A stretch of DNA of 34,057 bases from Trueperaceae bacterium (GTDB lineage: Bacteria; Deinococcota; Deinococci; Deinococcales; Trueperaceae). A model generated the notes under the pieces. The model was not told where the DNA came from and ran no database searches. It worked only from the letters and a program-made list of their open reading frames with translations. The DNA is taken from positions 256,256-290,312 of the forward strand of contig JBBDRK010000049.1 in assembly GCA_040905465.1 (NCBI GenBank), written 5' to 3'. Below are positions 1,139-27,836 of this stretch, in pieces; position 1 is the first letter of the stretch, and each line of letters begins with the position of its first letter. The position numbers and the translations under genes are program-made.

Positions 1139-1168
1139 ACTATAGGCCTTCGCGCCCTGCCGGTGCAA
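1139..1168 (-). promoter_or_regulatory. Putative sigma-A promoter for phnD
   Basis: Minus strand TTGCAC (1168-1163), 18 bp spacer, TATAGT (1144-1139). Confidence 0.45.
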
Positions 1169-1243
1169 CGGTCTGGAGTCGTTCGGGTCCTCCGGCAGGA
1201 TCTCCCGGCACCTCGCGCAATCGCACCGATTTCGGCGAGACGT

Positions 1244-2053: not shown

Positions 2054-2226
2054 GGCGCCAGCGCAATAAGTGCGCGCAAGCGCCGGTCGGCCGGTGGCGT
2101 CGGCACGACGAAGGCGTCGCTTTGGGCAACTGCGGGACGTGCAAGCACGCCAAAGAGAGTAACCCGACTGGCGGCGAGGACCGTGCAGCTCCGGGAACGG
2201 ACGGGCCGGCAACGGCTCAGCGAAAT

Positions 2227-2260
2227 GCCGCCGCGCTCCGAGATTCCGGAGCGCGGCGGC
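2227..2260 (-). terminator. Stem-loop terminator downstream of the S8 peptidase gene
   Basis: Perfect 14-bp stem GCCGCCGCGCTCCG/CGGAGCGCGGCGGC, 6-nt loop, about 30 nt past the stop codon. Confidence 0.6.
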
Positions 2261-2291
2261 AAACAGAGGGCGAGCGATTATCGTGCCTGGG

Positions 2292-4454: not shown

Positions 4455-4737
4455 GCATACCCCCATAGAGCGCATTGCTCGCGGTCCAGGACGTCCCGGA
4501 ACCCGTGTCAGCCCTTCGGGCGAGCCCCTCTGCTGCCACGCCCCGGAGCTGTCCTGCACCTTGAGTGGCAGCAGTTTACTACAGGCCGGCAGGTGGGGAG
4601 TTCGGGTCAGAACCGCCCTGGGCAGGGAGTGAAACCGACGCCGGCGCTGACGAAATTCTTACCGTTCAGCACAAGCGCACGCGGCGCAGTGGCTGCCTCG
4701 GCGCCCGGACCGGCAAGGGTACGCACCTTCCCGGCCG

Positions 4738-4791: not shown

Positions 4792-5952
4792 GTGGAACGG
4801 CTGGCGCTAATCGGCGTATCTCACAAGCGGGGCGGGGCGGGAGCGCTCGAGGCCTGGCAGGCCGCCTTCGGCAACGACGGCCGTGCCGGGCTTGCCGCGC
4901 TGGGCCTCAGCGAGTTCGTCCCCATCGTCACCTGTAACCGCTGGGACGTGGTGGCGCTGCTGCCGGACGGCATGTCGGCGGAGGAAGCGCGAGGCCGCCT
5001 CACTCCGGTCGGGGTCGCCCGCAAGCCGTACGCCTACTTGGGCGACGCCGCGCTCGAGCAGCTCACCCGCATCGCCGCATCGCTCGACTCCCTGAACCCC
5101 GGTGAAGACCAGATCATGCGCCAAGTCCGTGAGGCTTACGCCGAGGCGCAGGAGTGCGGGACCATCGGACCCACCACCGCTTTCGCGTTCGAAAGCGCAT
5201 TGCGTATCGCCAAGCGAGTTCGGCGGGAGGTCGCCCTGGCTCCCACGCGCACCTCGCTGTTCTCGCTGGCCAGGCCGGAGTTGGAGTCGGCGCTGCGACC
5301 GGGGGACACCGTCGCCGTATTGGGCGCCGGCGAGATGGGGACTCTGGCCGCCAAGAGCATCGCCGCCATGCCGAACGTGCGGCTGCTGATCGTCAACCGC
5401 TCGGAGGATCGTGCCCGGCAGCTCGCGCGCCACCTGGGCGGCGAGCACCGGCCGCTGGAGGAGTTCCTGGGATCGCCCGGCCCGGTGGCCGTGCTGGTGG
5501 GGGCTACCCCGGTGGCTCAAATCGTCGGCCGAAAGACGCTCGAGCGGTTGCCGGGGCTGCGGCTTGCGATAGACCTGGGCATTCCACGAAACATCGATCA
5601 TCACGCCGCGGCCACGCTGGGCCTGCGCATCCTCGACGTGGACACTTTGCAGCTCGCCGGCGCGCGCCGCCGGGAGGAGCTGGGCAGTCGCCTGGGCGAT
5701 GCGGAGCGGATCGTTCGCGCAGAGCTGGAAGCAGCCGTAGACGAGTGGTCGGAGCGCCAGCTGGGGCCGTCGATCCGCCGGTTGCGCGAGTGGTACCTGG
5801 AGACCATCGGCGACTCCCTTCCCGCCGAGGAGGCGCGCCGTCTCGCCCACAAGTTCGCCCACGTGCCGGTGAAGGGCCTGCGCGCCGTGGCGCGCGAGCA
5901 CGGCCTGGAGGCGGCGAAGACCTTTCTGTCGGAAACGGGGCTGATGGAATGA
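4792..5952 (+). CDS. hemA: Glutamyl-tRNA reductase
   Basis: Catalytic TCNR, SLDSLNPGEDQI, NADPH site GAGEMG, DLGIPRNID. Confidence 0.93.
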   Translation: MERLALIGVSHKRGGAGALEAWQAAFGNDGRAGLAALGLSEFVPIVTCNRWDVVALLPDGMSAEEARGRLTPVGVARKPYAYLGDAALEQLTRIAASLDSLNPGEDQIMRQVREAYAEAQECGTIGPTTAFAFESALRIAKRVRREVALAPTRTSLFSLARPELESALRPGDTVAVLGAGEMGTLAAKSIAAMPNVRLLIVNRSEDRARQLARHLGGEHRPLEEFLGSPGPVAVLVGATPVAQIVGRKTLERLPGLRLAIDLGIPRNIDHHAAATLGLRILDVDTLQLAGARRREELGSRLGDAERIVRAELEAAVDEWSERQLGPSIRRLREWYLETIGDSLPAEEARRLAHKFAHVPVKGLRAVAREHGLEAAKTFLSETGLME

Positions 5953-6896
5953 GCGAGGGCAACCGCCAGAGTGCCGTCTGGGACGGCGGGCCGATCCGCA
6001 TCGCCACTCGCAAGAGCGCGCTGGCCTTGTGGCAGGCGGAGTTCGTACGTTCGCGCCTGGTCGCCCTCGGCCACCAGGTGGAGCTGGTACCTGTTGTTAC
6101 CCAGGGAGACGTCGACAGCCGGCCGTTCAGCCGGATCGAGGGTCAGGGGTTTTTCACCAAGGCGGTGCAAGACGCTGTCCTGGACGGCAGGGCCGACCTG
6201 GCGGTGCACTCCCACAAGGACTTGCCGTCTCAAGAGGCCCCTGGCCTGGAGGTGGCGGCGGTTCCCGAGCGAGCCGATCCCCGCGATGTCCTGCTGGTCA
6301 ACCGCTCGGCATTCAGCGGCAACGACCGGCCGTTGCCGCTGGAGCCCGGCGCGCGCGTAGGCACCAGTGCCGCCCGTCGCCGCAAACAGCTCGCCGCGCT
6401 CCGGCCCGACCTCGAGCTGGTCGAACTGCGCGGCAACGTGCCGACCCGTGTCGCAAAGCTGCGCAACGGCGAATACGACGCGATCGTACTGGCGGCGGCC
6501 GGCTTGAGCAGGTTGCAGTTGGAACTGTCCGGACTGGAGACTCTGGTGCTGGCGCCCGAGGTACTGGTGCCGGCCCCGGCCCAAGGCGCGCTGGCGCTGG
6601 AAATCCGGCGCAGCGACTACCGCTTGGCCTCTGTCCTCACCGACCTGCATTCGGTCGCCGACTACCGGGCGATATCGGCCGAGCGCGGCCTGATGGCGAT
6701 GCTGCAGGGAGGCTGTCAACTGGCGCTGGGTGCACATGCCGAACTCGTCGGCGAGAACGTGAAGCTGCGCGGTTGGTACGAGGGAAGTTCGGTGTTGGTC
6801 GAGCATTCATCACCGGAGGGCGCCGCCATGCTGGCGTTCGACGCCCTGGGCCGGCCCGACGGCCTGGCAGCGCGCAGCGAGCTGAGGACGCAGTGA
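5949..6896 (+). CDS. hemC: Hydroxymethylbilane synthase (porphobilinogen deaminase)
   Basis: ATG overlaps hemA stop (ATGA); IATRKSALALWQA, AVHSHKDLP, LRGNVPTR, cofactor Cys in QGGCQ. Confidence 0.95.
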   Translation: MSEGNRQSAVWDGGPIRIATRKSALALWQAEFVRSRLVALGHQVELVPVVTQGDVDSRPFSRIEGQGFFTKAVQDAVLDGRADLAVHSHKDLPSQEAPGLEVAAVPERADPRDVLLVNRSAFSGNDRPLPLEPGARVGTSAARRRKQLAALRPDLELVELRGNVPTRVAKLRNGEYDAIVLAAAGLSRLQLELSGLETLVLAPEVLVPAPAQGALALEIRRSDYRLASVLTDLHSVADYRAISAERGLMAMLQGGCQLALGAHAELVGENVKLRGWYEGSSVLVEHSSPEGAAMLAFDALGRPDGLAARSELRTQ

Positions 6897-6927: not shown

Positions 6928-7626
6928 GTGAAGCGGCCGCGCATAGCGCTTACGCAGTCGGCCGGCCGCCTGGAAGGCCTTGCCCCACTGCTGGAAGCGC
7001 GCGGATTCGAGGTCGTGCGGCGCCCGCTGATCGAAACGGTTCCCCGCACCGACGCGCGCACCAGTTCCGCCGCCGCCAAGCTGTCCGCGCTGCCCTGGTT
7101 GCTGCTCACCAGCCCCGCCACGGTGGAAGCGCTGAATGCTCTCGGGGTCGACATGAGCACTGCCAGAATCGGCGCCGTGGGACCGGCGACCGCCGAGGCG
7201 GCCACCGAGGCGATCGCGGGATCGGGGGGCCGGGTCGAACTCGTCGCGGTACCGAACAATGCCGACGGCCTTGCCCGCGCCTTCCTGGCTCATCCCCAGG
7301 CGTGTGGCCCGGTCGGCCTGCCCCGCGGGAACCGGGCTCTCGACACGCTCGAGCGCATTCTGGGAGAAGCCGGAATCGCAACTTTCCCGGTGGTGGTCTA
7401 CGACGCACGCACTCTGGTTTGGCGCGACGGGGCCGTAGACGCGGTTGTCCTGGGAAGCCCTTCGGCGGTGGAGGCGTTACCGGACGAGGTGGCTCGCGGC
7501 GGCCGTGTGGTTACCCTGGGAGGGACGACTTCGGTCGCGGCCAGGGCACGTGGCTGGCTGTGCGAAGAGGCGCAGGCGCCGACGGCCGAGGCGACGCTGG
7601 CAGCCGTGGAAAGGGTGTTGGTATGA
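6928..7626 (+). CDS. hemD: Uroporphyrinogen-III synthase
   Basis: RPRIALTQ, PLIET, LTSPATV, AVGPATAEA, VYD, GSPSAV; lies between hemC and hemB. Confidence 0.82.
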   Translation: MKRPRIALTQSAGRLEGLAPLLEARGFEVVRRPLIETVPRTDARTSSAAAKLSALPWLLLTSPATVEALNALGVDMSTARIGAVGPATAEAATEAIAGSGGRVELVAVPNNADGLARAFLAHPQACGPVGLPRGNRALDTLERILGEAGIATFPVVVYDARTLVWRDGAVDAVVLGSPSAVEALPDEVARGGRVVTLGGTTSVAARARGWLCEEAQAPTAEATLAAVERVLV

Positions 7627-8717
7627 CGACTTCCGGTTCGAAACCCGTGGCGAGGTCCAGCGCGGTAGCCGACCTCCCACTGCCGCGCGAGCGTCCCCGG
7701 CGGCTGCGTGGCAGCGCCTCCCTGCGCGCCCTGGTGACCGAGACGCGGCTTGCCCCGGAACAGCTCGTGGCGCCTTTTTTCGTTGTGCCTGAAAGCGGCC
7801 AGGAGCAACCGGTCGCCTCGCTGCCGGGGGTATCGCGCTTCTCGGTCGACCGGCTGCTACCGGAGCTCGAGCGCGCCCTGAAGCTGGGGGTGCGCTCGGC
7901 GGTGCTCTTCGGTGTGCTGCCCGACCGGGATAAGAACGATTGGGCCGGCCGTGCCGACGATCCCGACGGTCCTGTCGCCAGCGCCTTGCGCGAGGCGCGC
8001 CGGCAGTTCGGAAACGACCTGGCGCTGATAACCGACGTGTGCCTGTGCGGCTACACCGACCACGGCCACTGCGGCCTGCTCGGTCACTCGCCGCGGGGCG
8101 TTCACATCGATAACGACTCCAGCCTGGGGAGGCTTGCCGAGATGGCGTTGGCCCATGCCGAGGCCGGCGCCGACCTCGTCTCACCGTCCGACATGATGGA
8201 CGGGCGGGTGGCGGCGATCCGCACCGCGCTCGACGGTGCCGGCCACAGCGACGTGGGGATCCTGTCGTATGCCGTCAAGTATGCCTCGGCGTTCTACGGA
8301 CCGTTTCGAGAAGCGGCAGGTTCGGCGCCCAAGGGCGACGCGGCGCTCGGGTCCACCGCCGGCAGCGGCGGCGTTCCGAGTGACAGGCGCAGCTATCAGA
8401 TGGACCCCGCCAACGCCCGCGAGGCGATGCGCGAGGCGGCGCTCGACGAGGCTGAAGGCGCCGACATGCTGATGGTCAAGCCCGCTCTGCCGTACCTGGA
8501 CGTGCTGGCGCGGCTGCGTCCGGCAACCGATCTGCCGCTGGTCGCCTATCAGGTGTCCGGCGAATACGCCATGCTCAAGGCGGCCGCCGCGGCTGGGGTC
8601 TTGCAGGAAGCCGACGCCGTACGCGAGAGCCTGCTTGCCATCAGGCGGGCGGGCGCCGATCTGATCCTCAGCTATTACGCCGTCGAGGCACTCGAGAAGG
8701 GGTGGCTGAACAGCTAG
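7623..8717 (+). CDS. hemB: Porphobilinogen synthase (ALA dehydratase), Zn-binding type
   Basis: RPRRLR, DVCLCGYTDHGHCG, SPSDMMDGRV, YAVKYASAFYGPFREA, MVKPALPYLD; ATGA overlap with hemD. Confidence 0.96.
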   Translation: MTTSGSKPVARSSAVADLPLPRERPRRLRGSASLRALVTETRLAPEQLVAPFFVVPESGQEQPVASLPGVSRFSVDRLLPELERALKLGVRSAVLFGVLPDRDKNDWAGRADDPDGPVASALREARRQFGNDLALITDVCLCGYTDHGHCGLLGHSPRGVHIDNDSSLGRLAEMALAHAEAGADLVSPSDMMDGRVAAIRTALDGAGHSDVGILSYAVKYASAFYGPFREAAGSAPKGDAALGSTAGSGGVPSDRRSYQMDPANAREAMREAALDEAEGADMLMVKPALPYLDVLARLRPATDLPLVAYQVSGEYAMLKAAAAAGVLQEADAVRESLLAIRRAGADLILSYYAVEALEKGWLNS

Positions 8718-9943
8718 TGTCCGCTCCGCCCACGAAACGGAACAAGGCGCGGAACGCGTCAGGGAGCGAGCCGCGCACGGCCGACCGGCCCACGGCAAGG
8801 ACCGCTTCACGTCGCGCGCCCGCTTCGCAGATGGCGACCCGCATCGCGTTCACGGTCATCATCCTGTTCGTGTTGGCACAGGTCGGCTGGTGGCTGATCT
8901 TCCAGGAGCGTTACCTTTCCAGCGTGACGAGCGAGAGGCTGGAGTCGTGGCAGCGCGACGCACTAACCGCCACAACCGCTCTGCGCCTCGCCGAGAACGA
9001 TCCGGCGGTTCGAGGCGAGTTGGCCGAGCGCTACCCGCATCTGCGGCTGCAGGGCGACGACTTCGTGATAGACGGCGACGCGCGGGCAGAGTTCGTTCGC
9101 TCTCAGCGCGGTTTCATGCGCATGTTTGCGTTCGAGGTGCCGTTCTTCGCTCTGGTGATCCTGTTGAGCCTCGTTTTCATCGCCGCCAGCCTGCGCAGCG
9201 AGCGGGAGCTCAAGCGCCGCCAGCAAAACTTCATGTCGGCAGTGACGCACGAGTTCAAGACCCCCATCAGCACGCTGCGGCTGCTGATCGAGACGGCGCT
9301 GCTCAGGCCGCTTCCTGCCGAGAAGTTGCGCGAGTACCTTCAGCGGATGACGGCGGAAGTCGCCCGCCTGGAACGGACATCGGACCAGGTGCTCGCCAGT
9401 GCCCGGCTCGAACAGTCACCCGAGGCGCGGCTGCTCGAGCCGCACGACCTCGCGACACTGGTGCGGAGCGTGGTGGCCAGCCAGCGCCAGGGGCTGGAGG
9501 CTCGCGGCGCGGTCATCGAGATTTCTACACCGGCAGAGCCCCTGCCGGTGTCCGTAGACGAGGACGCCTTCGCGATGGTGCTCGGCAACCTGCTGGACAA
9601 CGCAGTCAAGTACAGCCCGGAGGAGCGCAAGCCGGTAACGGTACGAATGGAACAGAGCGGTGATTTGGCGCTGCTGCATGTCGAGGACGAGGGAATCGGG
9701 ATCAACCCGGGGGAGCAGACAAGGGTGTTCGACCGCTTCTATCGCTCGGGCGACGAGATGACCCGGGAGTCCTCCGGCATGGGCCTGGGGCTGCATCTGG
9801 TAAGGAGCACGGTGGAAGCCATGAACGGCTGGGTGCGTTGCGGCAATCGCGAGGAGGGTCGGGGGGCGCGCTTCACGGTAGTGCTGCCACAACGACTCGC
9901 GCCGGCGCCAGCTCCCGGTCGGCAGGAAGCGACGAAAGCTTGA
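8717..9943 (+). CDS. Membrane sensor histidine kinase (two TM helices, HisKA and HATPase domains)
   Basis: GTG overlaps hemB TAG (start uncertain: 8702, 8717 or 8831); H-box VTHEFKTP, NLLDNAVKYS, DEGIG, FDRFYR, GMGLGL. Confidence 0.9.
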   Translation: MSAPPTKRNKARNASGSEPRTADRPTARTASRRAPASQMATRIAFTVIILFVLAQVGWWLIFQERYLSSVTSERLESWQRDALTATTALRLAENDPAVRGELAERYPHLRLQGDDFVIDGDARAEFVRSQRGFMRMFAFEVPFFALVILLSLVFIAASLRSERELKRRQQNFMSAVTHEFKTPISTLRLLIETALLRPLPAEKLREYLQRMTAEVARLERTSDQVLASARLEQSPEARLLEPHDLATLVRSVVASQRQGLEARGAVIEISTPAEPLPVSVDEDAFAMVLGNLLDNAVKYSPEERKPVTVRMEQSGDLALLHVEDEGIGINPGEQTRVFDRFYRSGDEMTRESSGMGLGLHLVRSTVEAMNGWVRCGNREEGRGARFTVVLPQRLAPAPAPGRQEATKA

Positions 9944-10695
9944 TGGCGGCGGGCGGCAAGGAGGCGGCCAGGTTCGCGGGGAACGAAACGGGCGCAAGCG
10001 TCCTGGTGATCGAAGACGAGGCCACGCTGGCGGAGGTGCTAGCCGACAACCTGGTCGACGAAGGTTACCGGGTCGAAGTCGCCCGCGACGGGCTCGCCGG
10101 TCAGGCGGTCTGGCGCGACCGCCAGCCTGACCTGGTGGTACTGGACGTCATGCTCCCCGGGCTCAACGGCTACGAGCTGTGCGAGTCGATGCGCCGCGAC
10201 GGCGACTCCACACCGGTGCTGTTCCTGTCGGCGCGAGGCCAGGCCGACGACCGGGTGCGGGGCCTGCAGGCGGGCGGCGACGACTATCTGCCCAAGCCGT
10301 TCCACCTGCCGGAGTTCCTGCTGCGCGTCAGCAACATGCTGCGCCGCCGCGGTTGGGGCAGCGCCCGGGAATCGGAGCTGGCCTTCGGCGGACACCGCGT
10401 CGACCTCCGTGGTTGGACGGCCGAGCTGGCCGACGGCAGGCGCGAGCTGCTGGGCGAGCGGGAGCTGGCGATCCTGCGGCTGCTGGCGCGCCGGCCGGGA
10501 GCGGTGGTGAGCCGCGACGATATCCTCGATGAGGTCTGGGGCGACGACGCCTTCCCGTCGAGCCGCACCGTGGACAACTTCGTCGTACGCCTGCGCAAGC
10601 TGTTCGAGCCGGACCCGGCAGAACCTATCTACTTTCACACCGTCTGGGGGGTGGGCTACCGCTTCACCCCTGATGGAGAGGAGACAACAGCGTGA
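9943..10695 (+). CDS. OmpR/PhoB-family response regulator
   Basis: TGATG overlap with the kinase; IEDE, LDVMLP, KPF receiver motifs; winged helix SRTVDNFVVRLRK...TVWGVGYRF. Confidence 0.93.
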   Translation: MAAGGKEAARFAGNETGASVLVIEDEATLAEVLADNLVDEGYRVEVARDGLAGQAVWRDRQPDLVVLDVMLPGLNGYELCESMRRDGDSTPVLFLSARGQADDRVRGLQAGGDDYLPKPFHLPEFLLRVSNMLRRRGWGSARESELAFGGHRVDLRGWTAELADGRRELLGERELAILRLLARRPGAVVSRDDILDEVWGDDAFPSSRTVDNFVVRLRKLFEPDPAEPIYFHTVWGVGYRFTPDGEETTA

Positions 10696-11825
10696 GCCTG
10701 TTCCTGCGCGCCCTCAGCGGCGAAGACACCGCAACGGCACCGATCTGGGTGATGCGCCAGGCCGGCCGCCACCTGCCCGAGTACCGGGCGCTGAAGGAGA
10801 AGCACACCTTCTGGGAGCTCGCCCGTACGCCCGAGCTGGCCGCCGAGGTCACCCTGCAGCCGGTGCGGCGCTACGCCATGGACGCCGCGATCCTCTTTTC
10901 CGACATAATGACGCCCTTGCCCGCCATGGGCATGGCGATCGACTTCCAGCCCGGGCCGGTGTTCGAAGAGCCGATACGCGACCCACGCCAGGTGGAGCGT
11001 CTGCGCATCCCGCACCAGGACGAGATCGCACCGTTCGTGGCAGACGCACTGCGGCTGATCCGACGGGCCTCGAAGGTGCCGGTCATCGGCTTCGCCGGCG
11101 CGCCGCTCACCTTGGCGACCTATGCGATCCAGGGCGGCGGCTCCAAGGACTACGCCGAGTTCCGGGCGTTCCTGCGGCAGGAGCCGGTGGCCGCGCACGC
11201 CCTGCTCGACCGCCTTACCGAGGTGACCATCCGCTACCTGTCGTTGCAGATTGCGGCCGGCGCCCAGGCGGTGCAGTTGTTCGACTCCTGGGCGGGCCTG
11301 CACGACGCGCGCTCCTACGCGGAGTTCGGCCTGCCTTACGCCCGCAGGGTGCTGGAGGCGCTGGCGGAGTACAGGATCGCCCGTATCTACCTGGCGGTCG
11401 ACGCCGCGCATCTCTACGAAGAGATCGCCCGGTTACCGGCCGAGGGGGTGAGCGTGGACTGGCGCTTGCCGCTGTCGACGGTGCGCGAGCGGCTGCCCGG
11501 CAAGGCGCTGCAGGGCAACCTGGACCCCGCCCTTCTGCTTGCCCCACCCAAAGTGCTGGTTGCAGAGGCGGAGCGGGTGTTGCGTGCCGGCCTGGGCGGG
11601 CCGCACGTCTTCAACCTCGGTCACGGTATCTTGCCGCAGACCGACCCCGGCGCGGTAGGGCTGCTGATAGACACGGTAAAGGCGTTCGACCGAAGCGCCG
11701 AGCAAGCCGCCGTGCACGACGCGCCTGTTCACAGAGGCTTGCGGCCGATCGGCTCATCGGTATTTCTCGACGGCCTGGAAGTCGAGCCTGCGGGTCCCGG
11801 AGGCGAGCGGGAAGACGAGTCGTGA
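10692..11825 (+). CDS. hemE: Uroporphyrinogen decarboxylase
   Basis: PIWVMRQAGRHLPEY, AILFSDIM, GFAGAPLTLATY, QGNLDP, FNLGHGI; low-conservation C-terminal tail. Confidence 0.96.
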   Translation: MSLFLRALSGEDTATAPIWVMRQAGRHLPEYRALKEKHTFWELARTPELAAEVTLQPVRRYAMDAAILFSDIMTPLPAMGMAIDFQPGPVFEEPIRDPRQVERLRIPHQDEIAPFVADALRLIRRASKVPVIGFAGAPLTLATYAIQGGGSKDYAEFRAFLRQEPVAAHALLDRLTEVTIRYLSLQIAAGAQAVQLFDSWAGLHDARSYAEFGLPYARRVLEALAEYRIARIYLAVDAAHLYEEIARLPAEGVSVDWRLPLSTVRERLPGKALQGNLDPALLLAPPKVLVAEAERVLRAGLGGPHVFNLGHGILPQTDPGAVGLLIDTVKAFDRSAEQAAVHDAPVHRGLRPIGSSVFLDGLEVEPAGPGGEREDES

Positions 11826-12799
11826 CGGGTCGGCGCGAGCAGGTGACCGAGGCGCTGCAACTGGGCCAGAGCCGGCTGATGGAGGCGTTCGAGGGGATCG
11901 ACGGCGAAGGCCGCTTCCGGGAACACGACTGGCAGCGGCCGGGAGGAGGCGGGGGCCGGGCGCGCATCCTGGAGGGCGGCGCCGTTTTCGAGAAGGCCGG
12001 TGTCAACATGAGCGCCGTGCACGGGGAGCGGGTGCCGCCGTCGCTGGCCAGGCAACATCCCGAGGCCGAGGGAAAGCCGTTCTTTGCCACCGGAGTCTCG
12101 CTGGTTCTGCACCCGCGCAATCCGTACGTGCCGGCCTTCCACGCCAACTTCCGCTACTTCGAGGTGGGGGGCAGCGAGGATGAAGGTGATCTCTGGTGGT
12201 TCGGCGGGGGCGCTGACATGACACCGAACTACCCGTCCGAAGCGGATCCGGCGCACTTCCACCTCACTCTCAAGGCGTTATGCGACCGGCACCCGCAAGC
12301 CGACTATCGGACCTTCAAGGAGACCTGCGACGAGTACTTCACGATTCGCCACCGCCAGGAAATGAGAGGCGTGGGCGGCATCTTCTTCGACGAGCTGTCG
12401 CCTCCCGGCCGCGGTTCGTTCGAGGCCGACCTGGGATTCACGGCCGACGGGCTGGCAAGCCTGATCCCGGCATACCTGCCGATCGTGGAGCGGCGGATGG
12501 ACGCGCCTTACGGCGAGCGCGAACGGGAGTGGCAGCTCTACCGGCGCGGCCGCTACGTCGAGTTCAACCTCGTCTACGACCGCGGCACCCTGTTCGGACT
12601 GCAGACGCAGGGGAACATAGAGGCGATCCTGATGAGCATGCCTCCCTACGCCCGCTGGGAGTTCGACTACCAGCCGGCCGCGGGAACCCCGGAAGCCCGG
12701 ATGCTCGAGTTGCTGCAGCCGCGCGACTGGGTGGGCTCGGCCGAAGGCATCGGCAGCGGCATGGAGAGTACCGCCGCCGCAGGGAGTTCAGGCGAGTGA
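11822..12799 (+). CDS. hemF: Oxygen-dependent coproporphyrinogen III oxidase
   Basis: GTGA overlap with hemE; FEKAGVN, GVSLVLHPRNPYVP, WWFGGGADMTP, RRGRYVEFNLVYDRGTLFGL. Confidence 0.95.
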   Translation: MTGRREQVTEALQLGQSRLMEAFEGIDGEGRFREHDWQRPGGGGGRARILEGGAVFEKAGVNMSAVHGERVPPSLARQHPEAEGKPFFATGVSLVLHPRNPYVPAFHANFRYFEVGGSEDEGDLWWFGGGADMTPNYPSEADPAHFHLTLKALCDRHPQADYRTFKETCDEYFTIRHRQEMRGVGGIFFDELSPPGRGSFEADLGFTADGLASLIPAYLPIVERRMDAPYGEREREWQLYRRGRYVEFNLVYDRGTLFGLQTQGNIEAILMSMPPYARWEFDYQPAAGTPEARMLELLQPRDWVGSAEGIGSGMESTAAAGSSGE

Positions 12800-13551
12800 A
12801 CGATCGGGTGGCGATAGTAACCGGCGCCAGTCGCGCCTCCGGGATCGGCGCGGCGATAGCCCGTGAGCTGGCGGTCGCTGGCTGGAACCTTCTGCTGACC
12901 GGTTGGGCCAGCTACGACGTCGAGCAGGGCCTGGCGACCGTCGGCTCGAGCCACCTGGCGGATCCGGCAATGATGGAGGAGCTTCGTGGCCTCGGCGTCG
13001 CCGCCGACGTGCTGGAGTGCGACCTGGCCGACCCGCAGTCGCCCGATCGGGTGCTGGAAGCGGCCGAGCGCCTGGGCCCGGTTACCGGACTGGTGAACAA
13101 CGCGACCCACTCGGAGCGGACTGCGCTCGACCAGCTCGACGCAGAGACTCTCGACCGGCACTACGCCATCAACCTGCGCGCCCCGGCGCTCCTGTCGCGG
13201 TCCTTCGCGAATCGCTTGCATGGCGGCTCCGGCCGCATTGTCAATCTCACCTCCGGGCAGGGCCTCACGCCGATGCCGGGCGAGCTGGCCTACGCGGCGA
13301 CCAAGGGCGGCCTGGAAGCATTCACCAGCAGCCTGGCTGCCGCACTGGCGCCGCGCGGCATAACCGTCAACGCCATCGACCCCGGCGCCACCGACACCGG
13401 CTGGATGAGCGACGAGCAAAGGCGGATGCTGGCTGCGCCCATGGGCCGGCTGGGCGAACCCCGGGACGCCGCCCGGCTGGTGCGCTTCCTCATGTCGCCC
13501 GAGGCCGGCTGGATAACCGGTCAGGTAATCCGTTCACGCGGCGGGCTATGA
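12796..13551 (+). CDS. Short-chain dehydrogenase/reductase
   Basis: GTGA overlap with hemF; TGASRASGIG, LVNNA, catalytic YAATK, VNAIDPG, WITGQ. Confidence 0.9.
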   Translation: MNDRVAIVTGASRASGIGAAIARELAVAGWNLLLTGWASYDVEQGLATVGSSHLADPAMMEELRGLGVAADVLECDLADPQSPDRVLEAAERLGPVTGLVNNATHSERTALDQLDAETLDRHYAINLRAPALLSRSFANRLHGGSGRIVNLTSGQGLTPMPGELAYAATKGGLEAFTSSLAAALAPRGITVNAIDPGATDTGWMSDEQRRMLAAPMGRLGEPRDAARLVRFLMSPEAGWITGQVIRSRGGL

Positions 13552-13684
13552 CTATCGCCGCGCTCGCGACCTACAAGAGTTCTCATAGTCTACGAAGAGG
13601 CATCATGGTCGATGTACACGGCTTCAGGGACCGCAAGTCGGCAGCCGCTGGGCTTGACAAACCAGCCCGCGGTACGATTCGAGC

Positions 13685-14809
13685 ATGAGTTCACCGACCG
13701 GAATCGCGATGATGAACCTCGGCGGGCCGAAGAGCCTCGACGAGGTCCAGCCGTTTCTGCTGGAACTGTTCGCCGACCGGGAAATAATCCAGTTGCCGAT
13801 GCAGGACTGGATGGGGCCGTACATAGCCCGCCGCCGGACCAAGGGCGTGCAGCAGAACTATCAGGACATCGGCGGCGGCTCGCCGATCCTCCAATGGACT
13901 GAGGAACAGGGTCGCGGGATGTGCGAGCGGCTCGACGTGCTGTCACCCGATACCGCCCCCCACAAGTTCTACGTTGCGTTCCGCTATGTCGAGCCCAAGA
14001 GCGAAGACGCCCTGCGCGCGATGCAGCGCGACGGCGTCAAGCGAGCGGTGGCGTTTACCCAGTACCCGCAGTTCTCCTGCTCCACCACCGGCAGTTCGCT
14101 GAACGAGTTGTGGCGGGCCGCCCGCCGGCTCGACCTGCACGACCACTTCGACTGGAGCGTCGTCGACCGCTGGCCGACCCATCCGCGCTTCATCGAGGCA
14201 ATGACGGAAACGGTGAGGCAGGGGCTCGAGCAGTTCCCGGAGCCGGAGCGCGACGACGTGCTGATCCTCTTCAGCGCGCACTCGCTTCCCCTGGACGTGA
14301 TCAACCGCGGCGACGCCTATCCCCAGGAGGTCGGCGCCAGCGTCCACGAGGTGATGAAGCGGCTCGACTTCTCGCACGAGTACCTGCTCAGCTACCAGTC
14401 GGACGTCGGTCCGGTCCCGTGGCTGGGCCCGTCGACCGAGTCGGTCATCGAGCACCTCGGCGAGAAGAAGCGCCGGAACGTCCTGGTAGTGGGGATCGCC
14501 TTCACCAGCGACCACATCGAGACGCTTCACGAGCTCGACATCGAGTACGGCGAGCTGGCGCACGAGTCCGGGATCAGCAACTACAAGCGCGCGCCGGCAC
14601 TCAACGGCCTGCCGCTGTTCCAGGACGCGCTGGCGGAGATCGTGGCTAGCCACCTGGAAAGTGGCGAGGCCTGCTCGAGCCAGTACGGGCTGCGCTGCCC
14701 CGGTTGCGTGAACCCGCAGTGCCGCAACATCTTGAATCCCGTGGCGCCCTTCCGCCGCACCAACGTGAGCATCTCGAAGGAAAGCAGGAAGTACGCGGCC
14801 GCCAAATAG
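13685..14809 (+). CDS. hemH: Ferrochelatase, eukaryotic-like with predicted [2Fe-2S] cluster
   Basis: NLGGP, IGGGSP, FSAHSLP (H199), QSDVGPVPWLGP, FTSDHIETL (E279); Cys132 plus C-terminal CPGCVNPQC. Confidence 0.96.
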   Translation: MSSPTGIAMMNLGGPKSLDEVQPFLLELFADREIIQLPMQDWMGPYIARRRTKGVQQNYQDIGGGSPILQWTEEQGRGMCERLDVLSPDTAPHKFYVAFRYVEPKSEDALRAMQRDGVKRAVAFTQYPQFSCSTTGSSLNELWRAARRLDLHDHFDWSVVDRWPTHPRFIEAMTETVRQGLEQFPEPERDDVLILFSAHSLPLDVINRGDAYPQEVGASVHEVMKRLDFSHEYLLSYQSDVGPVPWLGPSTESVIEHLGEKKRRNVLVVGIAFTSDHIETLHELDIEYGELAHESGISNYKRAPALNGLPLFQDALAEIVASHLESGEACSSQYGLRCPGCVNPQCRNILNPVAPFRRTNVSISKESRKYAAAK

Positions 14810-14831
14810 GCCGGGGTCGAGATGACAAGTC

Positions 14832-14858
14832 GAGAGGCGCTGCAGCGCAGCGCCTCTC
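14832..14858. terminator. Hairpin between convergent hemH and the NHL-protein gene
   Basis: GAGAGGCGCTGC / GCAGCGCCTCTC inverted repeat. Confidence 0.55.
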
Positions 14859-14877
14859 CCTGCTTCTCGTTCCTGAG

Positions 14878-16704
14878 CTACCGGCCTTGCGGCAGCGACT
14901 CGAAGATCAGGTACCTGGCGTTGTACCCGTCGGCGATGACGAGGAGCCCACCGTCGAGGTGGACGCCTGCCGGGGCGTACAGCATATGCTTTCCGACCTC
15001 TTCTCCGTAGGAGTAATTGCAGTAGCCATAGTCGACCGACGTGGAGTTCTCTATGGTGCAGAAGAGGTCGCCTTGTCCCAACGCGTAGTCCGCAGGGGCT
15101 CCGTTGGATTCCGGGATCACGTCCCAAACGAGCATGCGATTGTTGTAGGTGTCGGCAACGAACAACTGGTTTCCGTTCGAGGCAAGGTAAGTGGGGAAGT
15201 TGAGCCGGTACTCGCCTGCGCCGGCACCGCCTGTATCGAACCGGTCCTGCCCCACGACAACGTCGGCCGAAGCGAAATCGGTTGACGGGAAGCCGTGCCA
15301 GCTCAGCACTCGATTGTTCCCGGAGTCGGCGACGATCAAGCGGTTTCCGTCGGCCCAGGCGTCGATCGGGTTCCTCAGAGTGGCTTGGCCCGGCCCGCCC
15401 CCGCCATTCTCCTCGCAACTCTCGAAATCGCGTTGACCTATGACCATGTCCGCGGGAACCCCGTGCTCGGATGGAATGCTATTCCAGACGAGGACACGAT
15501 TGTTGCCGCTGTCGACCACGATCAATCTGCCGTCTGCCATCACAACGCTCGCCGGCGAATCGAGGCGCCCTCGTCCGCATGCGGGAGTCGAGTGGCCGAA
15601 GTCGGCCTGTCCCACCACTACGTCCGCTACCTCGTTGTCGACCGGCACACGGTTCCATATAAGTACGCGGCTGTTACCACCATCGGCCAGCGCCAACATC
15701 CCATCGGCTATCGACACGCTGCCGGGCCTGCTTAAATCGTTTGCCCCGTTACCCGGGGTTGGGAACGTTCCAAAGTCATCCTGGCCTATGGCGAAGGTAG
15801 CGCTGGCGCCATCACTGCTCGGCTCGGGGTCGAAGACGAGTACCCGGTGGTTGTACATATCGGGCAGATACAATGCTCCCCCGTCTGAAACCGGGTTACC
15901 GAAGAGCGGCGTCTCGAACTGGTTGTCGCCGTAGCCGGACATGAAGTAGTTCCAACTGTGGTTGTACTTGCCGATGTACGTCTTTGCCGACTGCCCGGTT
16001 TCGAGCCTGAAGTAGGGGTAGCTGACGCCGAGGGACGCGGACCCCTCCTTGCCCGCTTCGTTCCTGGCCACGACCTCGAGCCGGTTGTCATCGTTGTCGC
16101 GGAGCTCGACTTCGACACCGAACCCGGTCTGATCCCAAAGGAGGGGGGGAAGTTCGATTCCGTTGTGCCTGACGGTCACTTCAGTTATGGTGGCGCCGCT
16201 CGAAAGCGTGCCGGAGAGAACGACGGTGCGAGGCCCAAAAACCTGCTGCCCGTCTTGGTGCGACACCACCTCGACCGAAACGATCGGGTCGGGCTGGGTG
16301 GTGAACGACCAACTGTGGGTGAAGTCGCGCGGCGGCTGGCCGCGGCCGCGGCTCAGTTCGCTGGCGTCTACGGTGGCACTGTATTCAGTGCCGTAGCTCA
16401 GGAACTGCGCGGGCACGAAGGTAACGGCTCGGCCGTCCTCCGACAGCGTGACCTCGCCTTCGACCGCGGTCCCATCGGGCTCCGCCAGGTTGAGCATATC
16501 CTCCGGGGAGTCGGATCTGACCTCACCGTTGAACGTGACTCGCACGTGGGCGTCGACTGCGACATCGGCCTCGCCACTCGCTGGCGCTACCGAGGTAATT
16601 CGGCCGGTCGGACCGGCCAAGGCCGACACGTCCGATTCGGACGGGACGGAGCAGGCGACGAGGACCAGCGCTGAGAAGAAGGTGATGACGAATAGTCTGC
16701 GCAT
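14878..16704 (-). CDS. Lipoprotein with Ig-like (Big_5-type) domain(s) and NHL-repeat beta-propeller
   Basis: AGGAGG then MRRLFVITFFSALVLVAC lipobox; VTFNGEV...TFVPAQFLSYGTEY; repeated (A/V)DxxNNRVL(I/V)W...AD(V/M)V(V/I)GQ units. Confidence 0.82.
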   Translation of the reverse strand: MRRLFVITFFSALVLVACSVPSESDVSALAGPTGRITSVAPASGEADVAVDAHVRVTFNGEVRSDSPEDMLNLAEPDGTAVEGEVTLSEDGRAVTFVPAQFLSYGTEYSATVDASELSRGRGQPPRDFTHSWSFTTQPDPIVSVEVVSHQDGQQVFGPRTVVLSGTLSSGATITEVTVRHNGIELPPLLWDQTGFGVEVELRDNDDNRLEVVARNEAGKEGSASLGVSYPYFRLETGQSAKTYIGKYNHSWNYFMSGYGDNQFETPLFGNPVSDGGALYLPDMYNHRVLVFDPEPSSDGASATFAIGQDDFGTFPTPGNGANDLSRPGSVSIADGMLALADGGNSRVLIWNRVPVDNEVADVVVGQADFGHSTPACGRGRLDSPASVVMADGRLIVVDSGNNRVLVWNSIPSEHGVPADMVIGQRDFESCEENGGGGPGQATLRNPIDAWADGNRLIVADSGNNRVLSWHGFPSTDFASADVVVGQDRFDTGGAGAGEYRLNFPTYLASNGNQLFVADTYNNRMLVWDVIPESNGAPADYALGQGDLFCTIENSTSVDYGYCNYSYGEEVGKHMLYAPAGVHLDGGLLVIADGYNARYLIFESLPQGR

Positions 16705-16868
16705 TGGACCCTCCTGGAGCCGACTACGGCCCCAGCTGAATGGTAGGGGGCGCCAATGCACCGGACATATGTCATTTCCCTCACCGCTCGTTCACAAATG
16801 CGCTTAGTGTTTCGAAGCACCGTTCAGCACGTCCTTCGGCCGCCTTCCCCCAATTGGGGGTGTGCCGG

Positions 16869-22393: not shown

Positions 22394-24271
22394 TCACTCG
22401 AGGCTCTCGAGGTAGGCAAGCAGCGCCTGAAGGTCCGCGGATTCCAGGTACATCGGCGGCATCCGGTTCCCCGGCTTGATGGCCTGCGAGTTCACTATCC
22501 AGCCCCCCAGGTTGCCGCGGTTGTTGGCAACGGTGCCGGCGCCCAGGGTCATGCGGCTCGCCAAGTGGGTGAGATCCGGCCCCACCTCGCCGCTGGCGCT
22601 TGTTCCCGCTACCGTATGGCAGTTCACGCAGGCGGAGCTCAGGAATACCTCCTGTCCCTTGCGCAGCACCTGTTCGCGCGGCGGCGCCGGCGTCTGCGCG
22701 CGCCGGGAGAGCCACTCGCCGAGGCTCTCCTCCGATTCGGCCACCACCAGCAGGCGCATGTTGGCGTGCTGAGCGCCGCAGAACTCCGCGCACTTGGCGC
22801 TGTGGATGCCTACCTCGTCGACCTCGATCCACAGGTCGTTGACGGTGCCGGGTATGAGGTCCATCTTCCCCTGCAGCCCGGGTGCCCAGAAGCTGTGGAT
22901 CACGTCGGCCGACGTCAGGCGCAGCCGTACCGGCCGGCCCGCGGGAACGTGGATCTCGTTGGCGCCGACCACTCCGGAGTCCGGGTAGCGGACCTCCCAC
23001 CACCACTGGTGACCGATCACCTCGATGGTGACGGCGTCTTCGGCCGGCCGGACCAGGCCGGCGGTGATGCCCAGCGAGTATAGGAGCAACGGCACCAGGA
23101 TCACGATGGGGATGACGATTCCGCCCAGCACCACGAACGGCCCGTCGCCCAGCGGTGCTCGGCCCCCAGCGGGGCTGCGTGGCCGGAATACGGCAAGCAG
23201 CAGCAGGGCGAACACCACCAGGCACACGACCGAGGCCAGCACCAGCATGACCCACCAGAGCGAACTGATCGACCGGGCCGCCGGACCGGCCGGGCTGAGC
23301 ACCTGCGCCTCGCTCGTGCCTGCGACCAGGCCAACGGCGATAGCGACGAGCGCGGCGAGCGCGGAGTTCAGGTTGCTGCCGGCCGGCCTGGACCGATCGG
23401 CCGCGTAGCCGTCTCGCGCCGGCTGGCTCACGGGCTGGCGGGCGGTGTCGACGCGCACCAGCCCGCGGTAGAGCAGCAGGCAGGCCATCGCCAGGTAGAG
23501 CGTGCCGGGCGGCACCCACATCAGCAGGCCGGCAAGCTGCTGGTCTCGCAGCGCGGAGAAGCCGGCCGCTTCGGCCACCCGCTGGTAGTGCGGGTACCAG
23601 GCGGTGGGCGAGAGGGTGATCATCGCGCCCAGCACGCCGCCCTGAACGGCGGCGATGAACAGTAACAACGGGGCGCCGAACGGGCTGAGCCGCCGTCGGC
23701 CGAGCGGCTGGAGCAAGGACCACCAGAACAAGCTGGCGGCCGCGAGCAGGCTGCCGTGCTCGAGCGCGTGAACGGTCGTGCTAGCCAGCGCGGACTGGTA
23801 CGCGGCAGGCAGATGCCAACCCCACAGCAAGGCAACGAACGAGGCAAGCGCGACGACCGGCCGGCTGAGGGCGTGCCACCCCAGCCGTAGTGGGTGGCAA
23901 CCTCGCCAGCCGGCCACCAGCCGCCGGCGCAGGCGGATCGGCGGGAGCCACAAAAGCGCCAGCAGCGGCACGCCGGCAACCAGTAGCGGAGCGGCAACCA
24001 GCACCAGCAGCAGGTGCTGCGCCATGTGCGCGGAGAACAGCAGTGCCGAGAGCGGCTCGAGCGGGGACGCCAGCGCCACGGCCAGGGCAAGCAGGCCCAA
24101 GCTGCCCGCCACCGCCTGGGCGACGCTCACCCCACGACCGACACCGGCAGCGAACCAGGCGCGAGTCACCCCCGCAAGATATAGAACGGTCGTCAACGCC
24201 AGCCCCAGCAACAGCGCCGGTTCGAACGGCCAGAGGCCGGCAACCATCACCACTGCCGGCGTCGCGCTCAT
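22394..24271 (-). CDS. coxB: Fusion of CtaG-type caa3 assembly factor, cytochrome c oxidase subunit II (CuA) and cytochrome c
   Basis: LFSAHMAQH, WHLP, HALEH, DQQLAGLLMW (CtaG); QWWW, DVIHSFW, CAEFCGAQHANM (CuA); CVNCH...PGNRMP. Confidence 0.88.
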   Translation of the reverse strand: MSATPAVVMVAGLWPFEPALLLGLALTTVLYLAGVTRAWFAAGVGRGVSVAQAVAGSLGLLALAVALASPLEPLSALLFSAHMAQHLLLVLVAAPLLVAGVPLLALLWLPPIRLRRRLVAGWRGCHPLRLGWHALSRPVVALASFVALLWGWHLPAAYQSALASTTVHALEHGSLLAAASLFWWSLLQPLGRRRLSPFGAPLLLFIAAVQGGVLGAMITLSPTAWYPHYQRVAEAAGFSALRDQQLAGLLMWVPPGTLYLAMACLLLYRGLVRVDTARQPVSQPARDGYAADRSRPAGSNLNSALAALVAIAVGLVAGTSEAQVLSPAGPAARSISSLWWVMLVLASVVCLVVFALLLLAVFRPRSPAGGRAPLGDGPFVVLGGIVIPIVILVPLLLYSLGITAGLVRPAEDAVTIEVIGHQWWWEVRYPDSGVVGANEIHVPAGRPVRLRLTSADVIHSFWAPGLQGKMDLIPGTVNDLWIEVDEVGIHSAKCAEFCGAQHANMRLLVVAESEESLGEWLSRRAQTPAPPREQVLRKGQEVFLSSACVNCHTVAGTSASGEVGPDLTHLASRMTLGAGTVANNRGNLGGWIVNSQAIKPGNRMPPMYLESADLQALLAYLESLE

Positions 24272-25177: not shown

Positions 25178-26557
25178 ATGGCGTTTCGAGTTGCGGTGAT
25201 AGGTGGCGGGGTGGCGGGTCTGGCTGTGGCGTTCGAGTTGCGTCGCCGTCGACCCGACTGGTCGGTGGTGGTTCTCGAGAAGGAGCAGGCGCCGGGCGGC
25301 AAGGTCCGCTCGAGCGCGTGCGACGGCTTCATCTACGACTGGGGGCCCAACGGTTTTCAACCGGCACCACGCACGCTCGAGCTGGTGGAGCAGCTGGGGC
25401 TGACCGCGAGCCTGGTGCCGGCCTCGGATAACGCCCGTTTCCGCTACCTGTTTCGCGACGGTGGGCTGCGTCGGGTGCCGGCGAAACCGCAGGAGTTCCT
25501 CACCAGCGAGCTGCTCTCCCCCGCCGGCAAGCTTCGCGCAGCTCTCGAGCCGTTGCTGGCGCGGCGATCCGCTCGAGCAGCCCACCTCGAAGAGTCGGTT
25601 CACGACTTCGTGGCACGTCACTTCGGTCGGGAAGCGGCCACCGTCCTGGCCGGCCCGCTGGTCCTCGGGGTGACTGCGGGCGATGCCCGCAAGCTCAGCG
25701 TCGACTCGCTGTTCCCGGGACTGCGCCGGCTGGAAACGGAGCACGCCAGCCTGCTCCAGGGCATGGCCGCGTCGCGGGGGCGGCGCCCGGCCGGCCCGGC
25801 TCTCTACAGTTTCCCGGGCGGAATGGGAACCCTGACGACCGTCCTGGCCGAGCGGTTGGGCGGCGCGGTGCGCTATGGCGCCGGGGTCGAGCGCCTCGGC
25901 AAGCCGCCAGACGGCGGTTTCGAGCTGTTCCTGGCGGGCGGTGAACGACTGTTGGCCGAGCGGGTAGTCATGGCCGCGCCGGCCTATGCTGCGGCTTCGC
26001 TGCTGCAGCCGCTGTCGCCGGCCGCCGCGGCTTCGCTGGCGGAAATACCGTATGCCGACGTCAGCATGTTGGCGTTCGGTTTCCCGCGTATAGACGTTCC
26101 GCATCCCCTGGATGGGTTCGGTTTCCTGGTGCCCAGAGGTGAGCTGGTGCGCAGCCTGGGCGTTCTCTGGACCTCGGCGCTCTTCGGCGACCGCTCGCCG
26201 GAGCGAACGGTTCTGTTGCGCGTGATCGCCGGTGGGACGCTCGACCCCGGCTTCGCCGACCTGAGCGACGAGGCGGCCATCGTTCAGGTGCGGCGCGACC
26301 TGCGGGTGACTATGGGGATCACCGCCGAGCCGCTTCTGGCGCGCAGGGTCCGGTTGGCGCGGGCGATTCCGCAGTACGAGCTCGGCCACGCCGGGCGAGT
26401 TGCCCGGGCGATGACGGCGGTTCGAGAACTGGGCGCCGTGGTGCTCGCCGGCAACGCTTACAGTGGCGTAGCTGTGAACGATTGCGTGCGTGACGCCGAC
26501 CGAGTGGCGAACGAGATCCTGGGAGAGGACGCGGATGGCGGCTCCTCGCTCTCCTGA
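25178..26557 (+). CDS. hemY: FAD-dependent protoporphyrinogen oxidase (HemY family)
   Basis: VIGGGVAGL, WGPNGF, GFGFLVP, IPQYELGH, GNAYSGVAVNDCV. Confidence 0.92.
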   Translation: MAFRVAVIGGGVAGLAVAFELRRRRPDWSVVVLEKEQAPGGKVRSSACDGFIYDWGPNGFQPAPRTLELVEQLGLTASLVPASDNARFRYLFRDGGLRRVPAKPQEFLTSELLSPAGKLRAALEPLLARRSARAAHLEESVHDFVARHFGREAATVLAGPLVLGVTAGDARKLSVDSLFPGLRRLETEHASLLQGMAASRGRRPAGPALYSFPGGMGTLTTVLAERLGGAVRYGAGVERLGKPPDGGFELFLAGGERLLAERVVMAAPAYAAASLLQPLSPAAAASLAEIPYADVSMLAFGFPRIDVPHPLDGFGFLVPRGELVRSLGVLWTSALFGDRSPERTVLLRVIAGGTLDPGFADLSDEAAIVQVRRDLRVTMGITAEPLLARRVRLARAIPQYELGHAGRVARAMTAVRELGAVVLAGNAYSGVAVNDCVRDADRVANEILGEDADGGSSLS

Positions 26558-27791: not shown

Positions 27792-27836
27792 GACCAGCAA
27801 AGAGTCGACCGCGTCGTAACGGCGTAGGAGATGATC

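Follow-up and report, generated by a model that had tools for sequence, protein, structure and literature searches.

The window analysed here, a stretch of 34,057 nucleotides from a Trueperaceae bacterium (GenBank assembly GCA_040905465.1, contig JBBDRK010000049.1, positions 256,256 to 290,312 of the forward strand), carries a ferrochelatase gene, ppfC (hemH), at 13685..14809 on the forward strand, which starts at an ATG and encodes a protein of 374 amino acids with a C-terminal extension bearing a [2Fe-2S] ligand motif. The protein belongs to the bacterial clade that lies nearest to all eukaryotic mitochondrial ferrochelatases (FECH), a clade made up of the Trueperaceae, many Gemmatimonadota and some Chloroflexota and Myxococcota. 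The explanation that best covers the whole of the data, and which we hold to be likely, is that the gene encodes a protoporphyrin ferrochelatase (PpfC) with a predicted human-type [2Fe-2S] cluster, that its nearest relatives are bacterial, and that the Trueperaceae gained it laterally together with a switch of haem route. It may be noted that this kind of enzyme is known and that the eukaryote-linked clade already has a first published member from bacteria.

The protein is a class II chelatase that passes the curated cut-offs and keeps the catalytic His and Glu. PF00762 matched residues 5-323 with 357.5 bits against a cut-off of 27 (Pfam), and TIGR00109 hemH gave 355 bits against a cut-off of 124.6 (NCBIfam). 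Its cysteines stand at positions 80, 132, 330, 338, 341 and 346, and both motifs, QFSCSTTGSSLN and CPGCVNPQC, are found in the translation of the open reading frame (ORF). The protein was compared with solved structures by phmmer against the chains of the PDB, which at E<=0.001 returned 38 distinct sequences, the top 17 being chains named 'Ferrochelatase, mitochondrial'. The best of these, 2qd3_A (E 3.6e-133, 447.5 bits), aligns chain residues 4-349 with query residues 4-348, so that 345 residues are aligned with one single-residue gap, placed after query residue 289. Yeast chains score lower (1l8x, 364 bits) and the bacterial coproporphyrin ferrochelatases far lower, at 131 bits or less. We take the remaining top mitochondrial chains besides 1hrk to be human variants, and the human precursor numbering to equal the chain index plus 64 (a 359-aa chain in a 423-aa precursor). 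On this assumed numbering, an offset of 64 pairs C132, H199 and E279 with human C196, H263 and E343, and an offset of 65 pairs C338, C341 and C346 with C403, C406 and C411. The four cysteines of the human ligand set are therefore all in place, with a spacing of C-x205-C-x2-C-x4-C: the internal fourth ligand Cys132 has its codon at 14078..14080, and the C338-x2-C341-x4-C346 group (CPGCVNPQC) occupies 14696..14722, its cysteine codons beginning at 14696, 14705 and 14720. The codon of His199, aligned to the catalytic, metal-side histidine H263, lies at 14279..14281 and that of Glu279 at 14519..14521, all of these being on the forward strand. C330 pairs with a non-ligand cysteine of the human chain. 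The chain 1hrk is identified as the human enzyme in PMC8529089.

Like human and other metazoan FECH (1HRK, 2QD3), the protein thus has the fold family, the catalytic His/Glu, the four cysteines and the C-terminal extension; it differs in lacking a mitochondrial presequence, in being encoded in a bacterial haem gene array and in having a 26-residue tail past the last cysteine that the human chain does not match. No N-terminal extension is present, the first conserved block beginning at residue 4. The gene has a GC content at third codon positions (GC3) of 0.90, and its relative synonymous codon usage correlates with that of nine neighbour genes at r=0.96 (range of those genes 0.86-0.97). A sequence-only reading of this DNA, made before our analysis, had already reported the gene with Cys132, C330 and the C-terminal cysteine group, the near gap-free alignment to human FECH with offsets 64 and 65, the missing presequence and the host-like codon usage, and all of these observations held when recomputed. 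Human ferrochelatase is a homodimer, and from the strong near-gapless match a homodimer stabilised by the C-terminal extension would be expected here also. A scan for promoters and terminators over 13400-15000 found none.

Ligand conservation was counted on an alignment of 190 rows, from which library representatives below 310 or above 600 aa and locus proteins below 300 aa had been left out. The full set of four ligand cysteines occurs in all 16 Deinococcota rows, in 23 of the 25 Gemmatimonadota rows, in all 4 Chloroflexota rows, the one row labelled Roseobacter, 3 of 3 rows from further metagenome-assembled genomes (MAGs), 2 of 3 deep rows and 26 of 34 rows of the eukaryotic clade, as against none of 104 ordinary ferrochelatase rows. 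The two Gemmatimonadota misses have nothing aligned at the three C-terminal cysteines; in one of them the frame ends with the contig, and the other differs there. Taken singly, the C132 column holds Cys in 16/16 Deinococcota, 25/25 Gemmatimonadota and 31/34 eukaryote-clade rows, the commonest residues of the ordinary rows at this column being I, R, K and T, and all 16 Deinococcota rows of the clade have the three C-terminal cysteines. The active-site columns are shared with ordinary enzymes: every one of the 104 ordinary rows has His at the His199 column and Glu at the Glu279 column, while in the clade His is missing from two rows only and Glu is almost invariant. This pattern indicates selection on the four cluster ligands throughout the family. 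Since the ligand cysteines are conserved across the family as in the human enzyme, the protein most probably binds a [2Fe-2S] cluster through Cys132 and Cys338/341/346, the same ligand set as in human FECH. Past the last ligand cysteine, a tail motif C-R-x-I-L/x-N-P is seen in the Trueperaceae-type rows and in P0121, P0122, P0125 and P0128, which are eukaryote-clade rows outside the animal-containing subclade; it is not seen in the crayfish row P0123, in P0133 of the same subclade or in the human chain.

Relatives of the protein are common. A protein search scored 8000 candidates and gave 6998 matches; among the best 120 of these the closest proteins, 78-92% identical, come, where named, from Trueperaceae, Deinococcales or Deinococcota MAGs and from Truepera radiovictrix, whose orthologue is 81% identical, and the closest relatives are annotated merely as 'ferrochelatase'. 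A locus scan was also made on one genome per prokaryotic species, with patterns derived by aligning the protein with its eukaryote-like relatives; it gave 599 pattern matches, of which 586 were confirmed relatives, and the best 80 of these 586 were kept, corresponding to 79 loci. On dividing these loci by taxon, 17 belong to Trueperaceae/Deinococcota (74-82% identity, including 3 assigned by tree), 27 to Gemmatimonadota (60-75%), 4 to Chloroflexota (Chloroploca, Roseilinea, Bellilinea and one further, 60-72%), one to a MAG contig labelled Roseobacter (64%) and 3 to fragments named Bradymonadia, 'delta proteobacterium' and 'bacterium' (62-64%). The remaining 27 loci, from ordinary bacteria and one archaeon, reach at most 46%, and this gap in identity between 60% and 46% sets the family apart as a distinct one. 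Among the loci of at least 60% identity in this set of 80, no alphaproteobacterial record was found besides the contig labelled Roseobacter. That contig (L028, labelled Roseobacter sp. MAG) has a FECH-HemE-HemF cluster at 221-4523 and groups tightly with a Chloroflexota MAG (99/96, supports as defined below), and is either a mis-binned contig or a recent transfer into an alphaproteobacterium.

The eukaryotic relatives were drawn from a library of representatives at 50% identity. The best library representatives, 38-59% identical to the query, carry N-terminal extensions, and those having names are eukaryotic. The best named eukaryote is the crayfish Cherax (P0123, 53%), followed by Fonticula alba (48%), the jakobid Andalucia godoyi (47%), the rhizarian Guttulinopsis (45%), the yeast Ascoidea (42%) and a myxozoan and an orthonectid (38% each). 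P0122, 55% identical and with an N-terminal extension, has oomycetes and EukProt transcripts among its relatives. A separate observation concerns P0158, a protein of 341 aa from a 111-kb contig, which has no N-terminal extension and forms a long branch inside the eukaryotic clade in the 190-row and 76-row trees; it could belong to a bacterium whose gene was acquired from a eukaryotic donor.

Three trees were computed: a FastTree tree of 190 rows, a quick IQ-TREE tree of 76 rows and a careful IQ-TREE tree of 66 rows and 378 columns under LG+C20+F+G4 with posterior mean site frequencies (PMSF), the supports of the last being given as ultrafast bootstrap / Shimodaira-Hasegawa-like approximate likelihood ratio test (SH-aLRT). 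P0164, P0157, P0149, P0163 and P0158 were left out of the careful tree as long branches, and L055, L036, L033, L022, L016, P0127 and P0141 by thinning. The trees were built without the characterised bacterial cluster enzymes, namely those of Caulobacter, Mycobacterium, Myxococcus and Pseudomonas syringae (PMC8529089). All three trees agree. In the careful tree a mitochondrial-type clade of 51 rows, the protein of the window among them, is set apart from 15 ordinary outgroup rows with support 100/96. Within it the pair P0137/P0392 branches first, the rest being held together with 97/95; 23 eukaryotic rows, including the jakobid, the rhizarian, oomycetes, Fonticula, the yeast and the crayfish, form one clade free of any bacterium (99/95), 24 named bacterial rows form another (86/90), and the pair P0136/P0142 goes with the eukaryotes on an unsupported branch (51/16). 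A group with 99/96 support unites the 7 Trueperaceae rows with three rows of Gemmatimonadota, so that in the tree the Trueperaceae stand next to or inside the Gemmatimonadota. The protein is hence outside the clade of eukaryotic FECH proper and, as said, has no N-terminal presequence. When the whole C-terminal tail and the C132 column are taken out, a further quick tree still recovers the mitochondrial-type clade (SH-aLRT 96, with P0137/P0392 still basal at 90), and the grouping is therefore independent of the cluster motif. In this core-only tree the eukaryotes are nested, with weak support of 72-81, in a grade of named bacteria composed of Bellilinea, Gemmatimonadota/Trueperaceae, Chloroflexota and a Myxococcales MAG. 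The human-type cysteines are accordingly explained by the place of the protein in the bacterial family closest to the mitochondrial enzyme and not by borrowing from an animal or fungus.

We examined a sample of 201 Deinococcota genomes from five families. Of the 40 genomes from the window's own family, 35 have a match of 71-86% identity to the protein. The four remaining families give matches in 22/92, 57/57, 9/9 and 2/2 genomes, none of them above 37% identity, and so within the Deinococcota the mitochondrial-type gene belongs to the Trueperaceae only. ChdC (PF06778) shows the reverse distribution, being found in 0/40 genomes of the own family as against 91/92, 57/57, 6/9 and 0/2 of the others, and the controls Thermus thermophilus and Deinococcus radiodurans both carry it. 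For HemF a sample of 81 genomes was used, in which it turned up in all 3 own-family genomes and in the window's genome, versus 0/39, 0/34 and 0/4 in other families. The CpfC of Deinococcus and Thermus belongs to the same phylum and chelatase superfamily, PF00762 being matched in both control genomes, but it is 28-37% identical to our protein, lacks the four cysteines and is paired with the ChdC that the Trueperaceae lack.

The window's genome, a MAG of 3.53 Mb in 81 contigs and 95% complete, has one ferrochelatase only, and neither ChdC nor HemJ was found in it. The ferrochelatase gene is the last of a same-strand run of haem genes in which neighbours have overlapping stops and starts. Of those nearest to it, hemE (uroporphyrinogen decarboxylase, 10692..11825) gave 369.4 bits with TIGR01464 (cut-off 303), and hemF (oxygen-dependent coproporphyrinogen oxidase, 11843..12799, with start candidates at 11843, GTG, or 11879, ATG) gave 399.2 bits with NF003727 (cut-off 297); hemF is a marker of the protoporphyrin-dependent branch. 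The gene hemY, for a PgoX-like protoporphyrinogen oxidase, is placed 10 kb downstream of ppfC at 25187..26557 (the listed ORF runs from 25088) with 260-261 bits for TIGR00562 (cut-off 97.85). Its best solved relative is 2ivd with 258 bits, which we take to be Myxococcus xanthus PgoX, followed by 3i6d (167) and 3nks (139). All three genes are on the forward strand. HemF, PgoX-like HemY and a single ferrochelatase make up the oxygen-dependent protoporphyrin branch as it exists in mitochondria. The genomic context is thus that of a PpfC, with HemF adjacent, a protoporphyrinogen oxidase present and no ChdC found in the genome, and since HemF and PgoX-like HemY are there and ChdC and HemJ were not found, the ferrochelatase is best read as PpfC. 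Its substrate, from homology and gene context, is best read as protoporphyrin IX, into which it would insert Fe2+ through the conserved His199/Glu279 site. In the 17 loci of the Trueperaceae clade HemF lies just upstream of FECH in 13, HemY downstream in 9, and the order regulator-HemE-HemF-FECH occurs in 8. Placing the regulator directly before hemE-hemF-FECH in these 8 loci suggests a dedicated control of late haem synthesis. The loci of the Gemmatimonadota have mostly FECH alone.

The best reading of these distributions is a lateral gain by the Trueperaceae, from bacterium to bacterium, along with a change from the coproporphyrin to the protoporphyrin route. In such a course an ancestor of the Trueperaceae would have received the ferrochelatase from another bacterium, its nearest relatives being Gemmatimonadota-like, would have acquired hemF and a PgoX-like hemY, or brought them together, next to it, and would have given up the coproporphyrin route (CpfC/ChdC) found in the rest of the phylum. 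The tree favours a Gemmatimonadota-like donor for the Trueperaceae without proving it. Some points weigh against this account, or against parts of it. A clade of nine Gemmatimonadota with Chloroploca and Bradymonadia that excludes the Trueperaceae costs 19.3 log-likelihood units (delta lnL) and is not rejected by the approximately unbiased (AU) test (p-AU 0.077), so the donor phylum falls short of proof. As FECH stands mostly alone in Gemmatimonadota, the hemE-hemF-FECH-hemY cluster was not simply copied from there. In the phylum sample, the own family is equated with Trueperaceae from the names of the closest proteins and loci, and 5 of its 40 genomes have no match, four of these in one genus. 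Because the window's genome is 95% complete, its lack of ChdC or HemJ is by itself weak evidence. Sequence homology, ligand conservation, phylogenetic placement and the gene content of the genomes are directly shown here, whereas the protoporphyrin substrate and the cluster are predicted from homology and gene context, and the direction and timing of the transfers are inferred. The five genomes without a match, 92-98% complete, are G141, G162, G167 and G186 of genus g8 and G183 of genus g17, three other g8 genomes having the match; loss, masked bases or haem auxotrophy could account for them.

As regards the origin of the human likeness, the sequence-only reading had called the enzyme animal/fungal in type and offered either an old eukaryote-to-bacterium transfer or a bacterial clade related to the source of eukaryotic FECH. 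The human ligand set is indeed there, yet the label is too narrow, as opisthokonts are no closer to the protein than oomycetes or the jakobid. A direct and fairly recent transfer from an animal, a fungus or another crown eukaryote into the Trueperaceae might be supposed from the higher score of human FECH (447 bits) over yeast (364 bits) and from the almost gapless alignment, but we regard it as very improbable. The eukaryotes are monophyletic without any bacterium, and a tree constrained to join Trueperaceae and eukaryotes in one clade was rejected (delta lnL 62.6, p-AU 0.00024), which disposes of this half of the earlier proposal so far as the Trueperaceae are concerned. Also, Gemmatimonadota are nearest, with up to 75% identity as opposed to the 53% of the crayfish, and the one-residue insertion of the human chain is shared by P0123 and P0133, being absent from our protein, from the other bacterial sequences aligned and from four other sequences of the eukaryotic clade. 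A more ancient transfer in this direction would have a stem eukaryote, before the last eukaryotic common ancestor, giving FECH to one bacterium, from which all bacterial members would descend by later transfers between bacteria. Here the AU test does not reject the required topology: a tree in which all 28 mitochondrial-type bacterial rows make up the sister clade of the eukaryotes is only 11.4 lnL units worse (p-AU 0.129). The patchy occurrence of the gene over four bacterial phyla is what a mobile gene would give, and the lineages that render the bacteria paraphyletic (P0137/P0392 and P0136/P0142) have no organism assignment. Against this, the free maximum likelihood (ML) tree sets P0137/P0392 outside the eukaryotes and the other bacteria, the core-only tree nests the eukaryotes among named bacteria, the best 120 relatives of P0137 include no eukaryotic name and all the named ones are bacterial, and none of P0137, P0392, P0136 and P0142 has an N-terminal extension. 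We therefore consider a stem-eukaryote donor unlikely, though distinctly less so than the direct transfer. The free trees suggest that eukaryotes took the gene from the bacterial group rather than the reverse. This fits the second half of the earlier proposal, as does the ML grouping with eukaryotic FECH and away from ordinary bacterial ferrochelatases. That the bacterial clade is the very stock from which the eukaryotic mitochondrial ferrochelatase came, already equipped with the C196/C403/C406/C411-type site, we put forward tentatively, with rather less than even confidence.

Lateral gain by the Trueperaceae has further to be weighed against vertical inheritance, in which the mitochondrial-type enzyme and the protoporphyrin route were ancestral in the Deinococcota and were replaced by CpfC/ChdC elsewhere. 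The gene is nearly universal in the family (35/40) and syntenic, and it is therefore old within it; yet the Trueperaceae rows fall among Gemmatimonadota rows instead of forming a separate deep branch, no intermediate is seen among the matches of the other four families, and ChdC is found in three of these four. Vertical inheritance is accordingly improbable in our judgement. To about the same small degree we would credit the view that the protein is an ordinary cluster-free ferrochelatase, or a coproporphyrin ferrochelatase, with cysteines that are structural or form disulfides. It can draw on the finding that Cys-to-Ser variants of bacterial cluster enzymes stay active (PMC8529089), from which the cluster is possibly dispensable for catalysis, but it leaves the four ligand positions, kept in about 50 bacterial rows from four phyla and in none of the 104 ordinary rows, without an explanation. 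Moreover, coproporphyrin III would be a dead end in this organism, as its genome is without ChdC and has HemF. Lastly, the source being a MAG of 81 contigs, a foreign contig or chimeric join may be thought of. This is hardly credible, since the longest contig in the record of the protein has 311,673 bases, the gene sits within the same-strand haem run, where stops and starts overlap, its codons are used as in the host, and orthologues of 71-86% identity are present in 35 of the 40 family genomes, several of them closed or near-closed, the same neighbours recurring at the loci compared.

The upstream part of the haem run, all on the forward strand, comprises hemA (4792-5952, GlutR_N in Pfam, as are the following), hemC (5949-6896, Porphobil_deam), hemD (6928-7626, HEM4) and hemB (7623-8717, ALAD); hemL was not seen within the window, although nearly the whole haem pathway is there on one strand. 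Embedded in the run between hemB and hemE, at 8702-10695, are a histidine kinase (8702-9943, HisKA and HATPase_c) and an OmpR-type response regulator (about 9940-10695), the latter with OmpR/PhoB-family matches that are all under equivalog cut-offs. Between hemF and ppfC lies a gene for an oxidoreductase of the short-chain dehydrogenase/reductase (SDR) family (12796..13551, forward strand), with NF009389 just above its cut-off (294.3 bits against 286); an SDR match between HemF and FECH recurs at loci L006, L009 and L045, and to our knowledge no role of such an oxidoreductase in haem synthesis is described. Directly downstream of ppfC and convergent with it is a gene for a 627-aa NHL-repeat/Big_5 protein (14878-16761, reverse strand), having a GC3 of 0.775 and the lowest codon-usage correlation (r=0.86) among the ten genes compared. 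Further on, an ORF of 625 codons (22394-24271, reverse strand) joins CtaG (the caa3 assembly factor, residues 16-194), CoxB (326-520) and a c-type cytochrome domain (546-621), which points either to a gene fusion or to an ORF called too long; the adjoining CoxA of 830 aa has a subunit-III-like C-terminus. A single-stranded DNA-binding protein (SSB) of 280 aa, with two SSB/OB domains in one chain, is encoded at 27831-28673 on the forward strand, and this two-domain form we take to be a Deinococcus-Thermus trait and a marker of the host lineage.

Parts of this picture have been described. Nagayasu et al. 2013 (PMC3596385) placed Gemmatimonas aurantiaca FeCH in their 'blue' eukaryotic clade as its sole bacterial member, with a one-sentence mention and no conclusion drawn from it in the text available. 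It belongs to the same clade as our protein, Gemmatimonadota being the nearest phylum, and as compared with that report the clade now has dozens of members in four phyla, with the Trueperaceae added. As relatives are thus abundant in public genomes and one is in print, the novelty falls below the level at which the sequence-only reading had rated it. Weerth, Medlock and Dailey 2021 (PMC8529089) list the C-terminal motif in 1/2 Gemmatimonadetes; the main text of that paper makes no mention of Deinococcus-Thermus, and the phylum is absent from Table 1, which covers motif-holding phyla only. They suppose eukaryotes to have inherited the motif from the alphaproteobacterial ancestor of mitochondria, state that the purpose of the human [2Fe-2S] cluster has been unclear since 1994, and report bacterial clusters to be far more stable than the human one, and dispensable. 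The characterised Caulobacter crescentus PpfC cited there is, as predicted for ours, a bacterial PpfC with its cluster bound by a C-terminal extension. The Myxococcus xanthus PpfC is likewise a bacterial cluster enzyme found alongside a PgoX-type HemY, as in the window's genome, but it has all four ligands in an internal insertion (PMC8529089) which our protein lacks, the arrangement here being C-terminal. A 2026 review gives the three-Cys C-terminal extension for many prokaryotic PpfC (PMC13564367), and Cihlar et al. 2016 (PMC5115734) call the mitochondrial enzyme 'eukaryotic in origin'. In the literature searched we found no ferrochelatase report for Truepera or Trueperaceae, nor in print the membership of Trueperaceae in the clade, the breadth of the bacterial clade with its strict conservation of the human ligand set, or the pathway switch inside the Deinococcota.

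Real and striking as the observation is, it is no demonstration of a gene transfer from eukaryote to bacterium, and its explanation is a more ordinary one. It presents a case of clean replacement of a pathway within one phylum, from the coproporphyrin to the protoporphyrin route, and widens the bacterial sampling available for tracing the origin of the eukaryotic enzyme. The clade also offers bacterial enzymes having the exact human ligand set and a near-gapless alignment to the human enzyme, for which Truepera radiovictrix, cultured and radiation-resistant, would be a convenient model in studying the role of the cluster. If the bacterial clade is indeed the stock of the mitochondrial ferrochelatase, the last enzyme of eukaryotic haem synthesis, along with its cluster, would have come not from the alphaproteobacterial ancestor of mitochondria but from another bacterial lineage, and cultivable bacteria such as T. 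radiovictrix would keep the ancestral form of the human cluster site.

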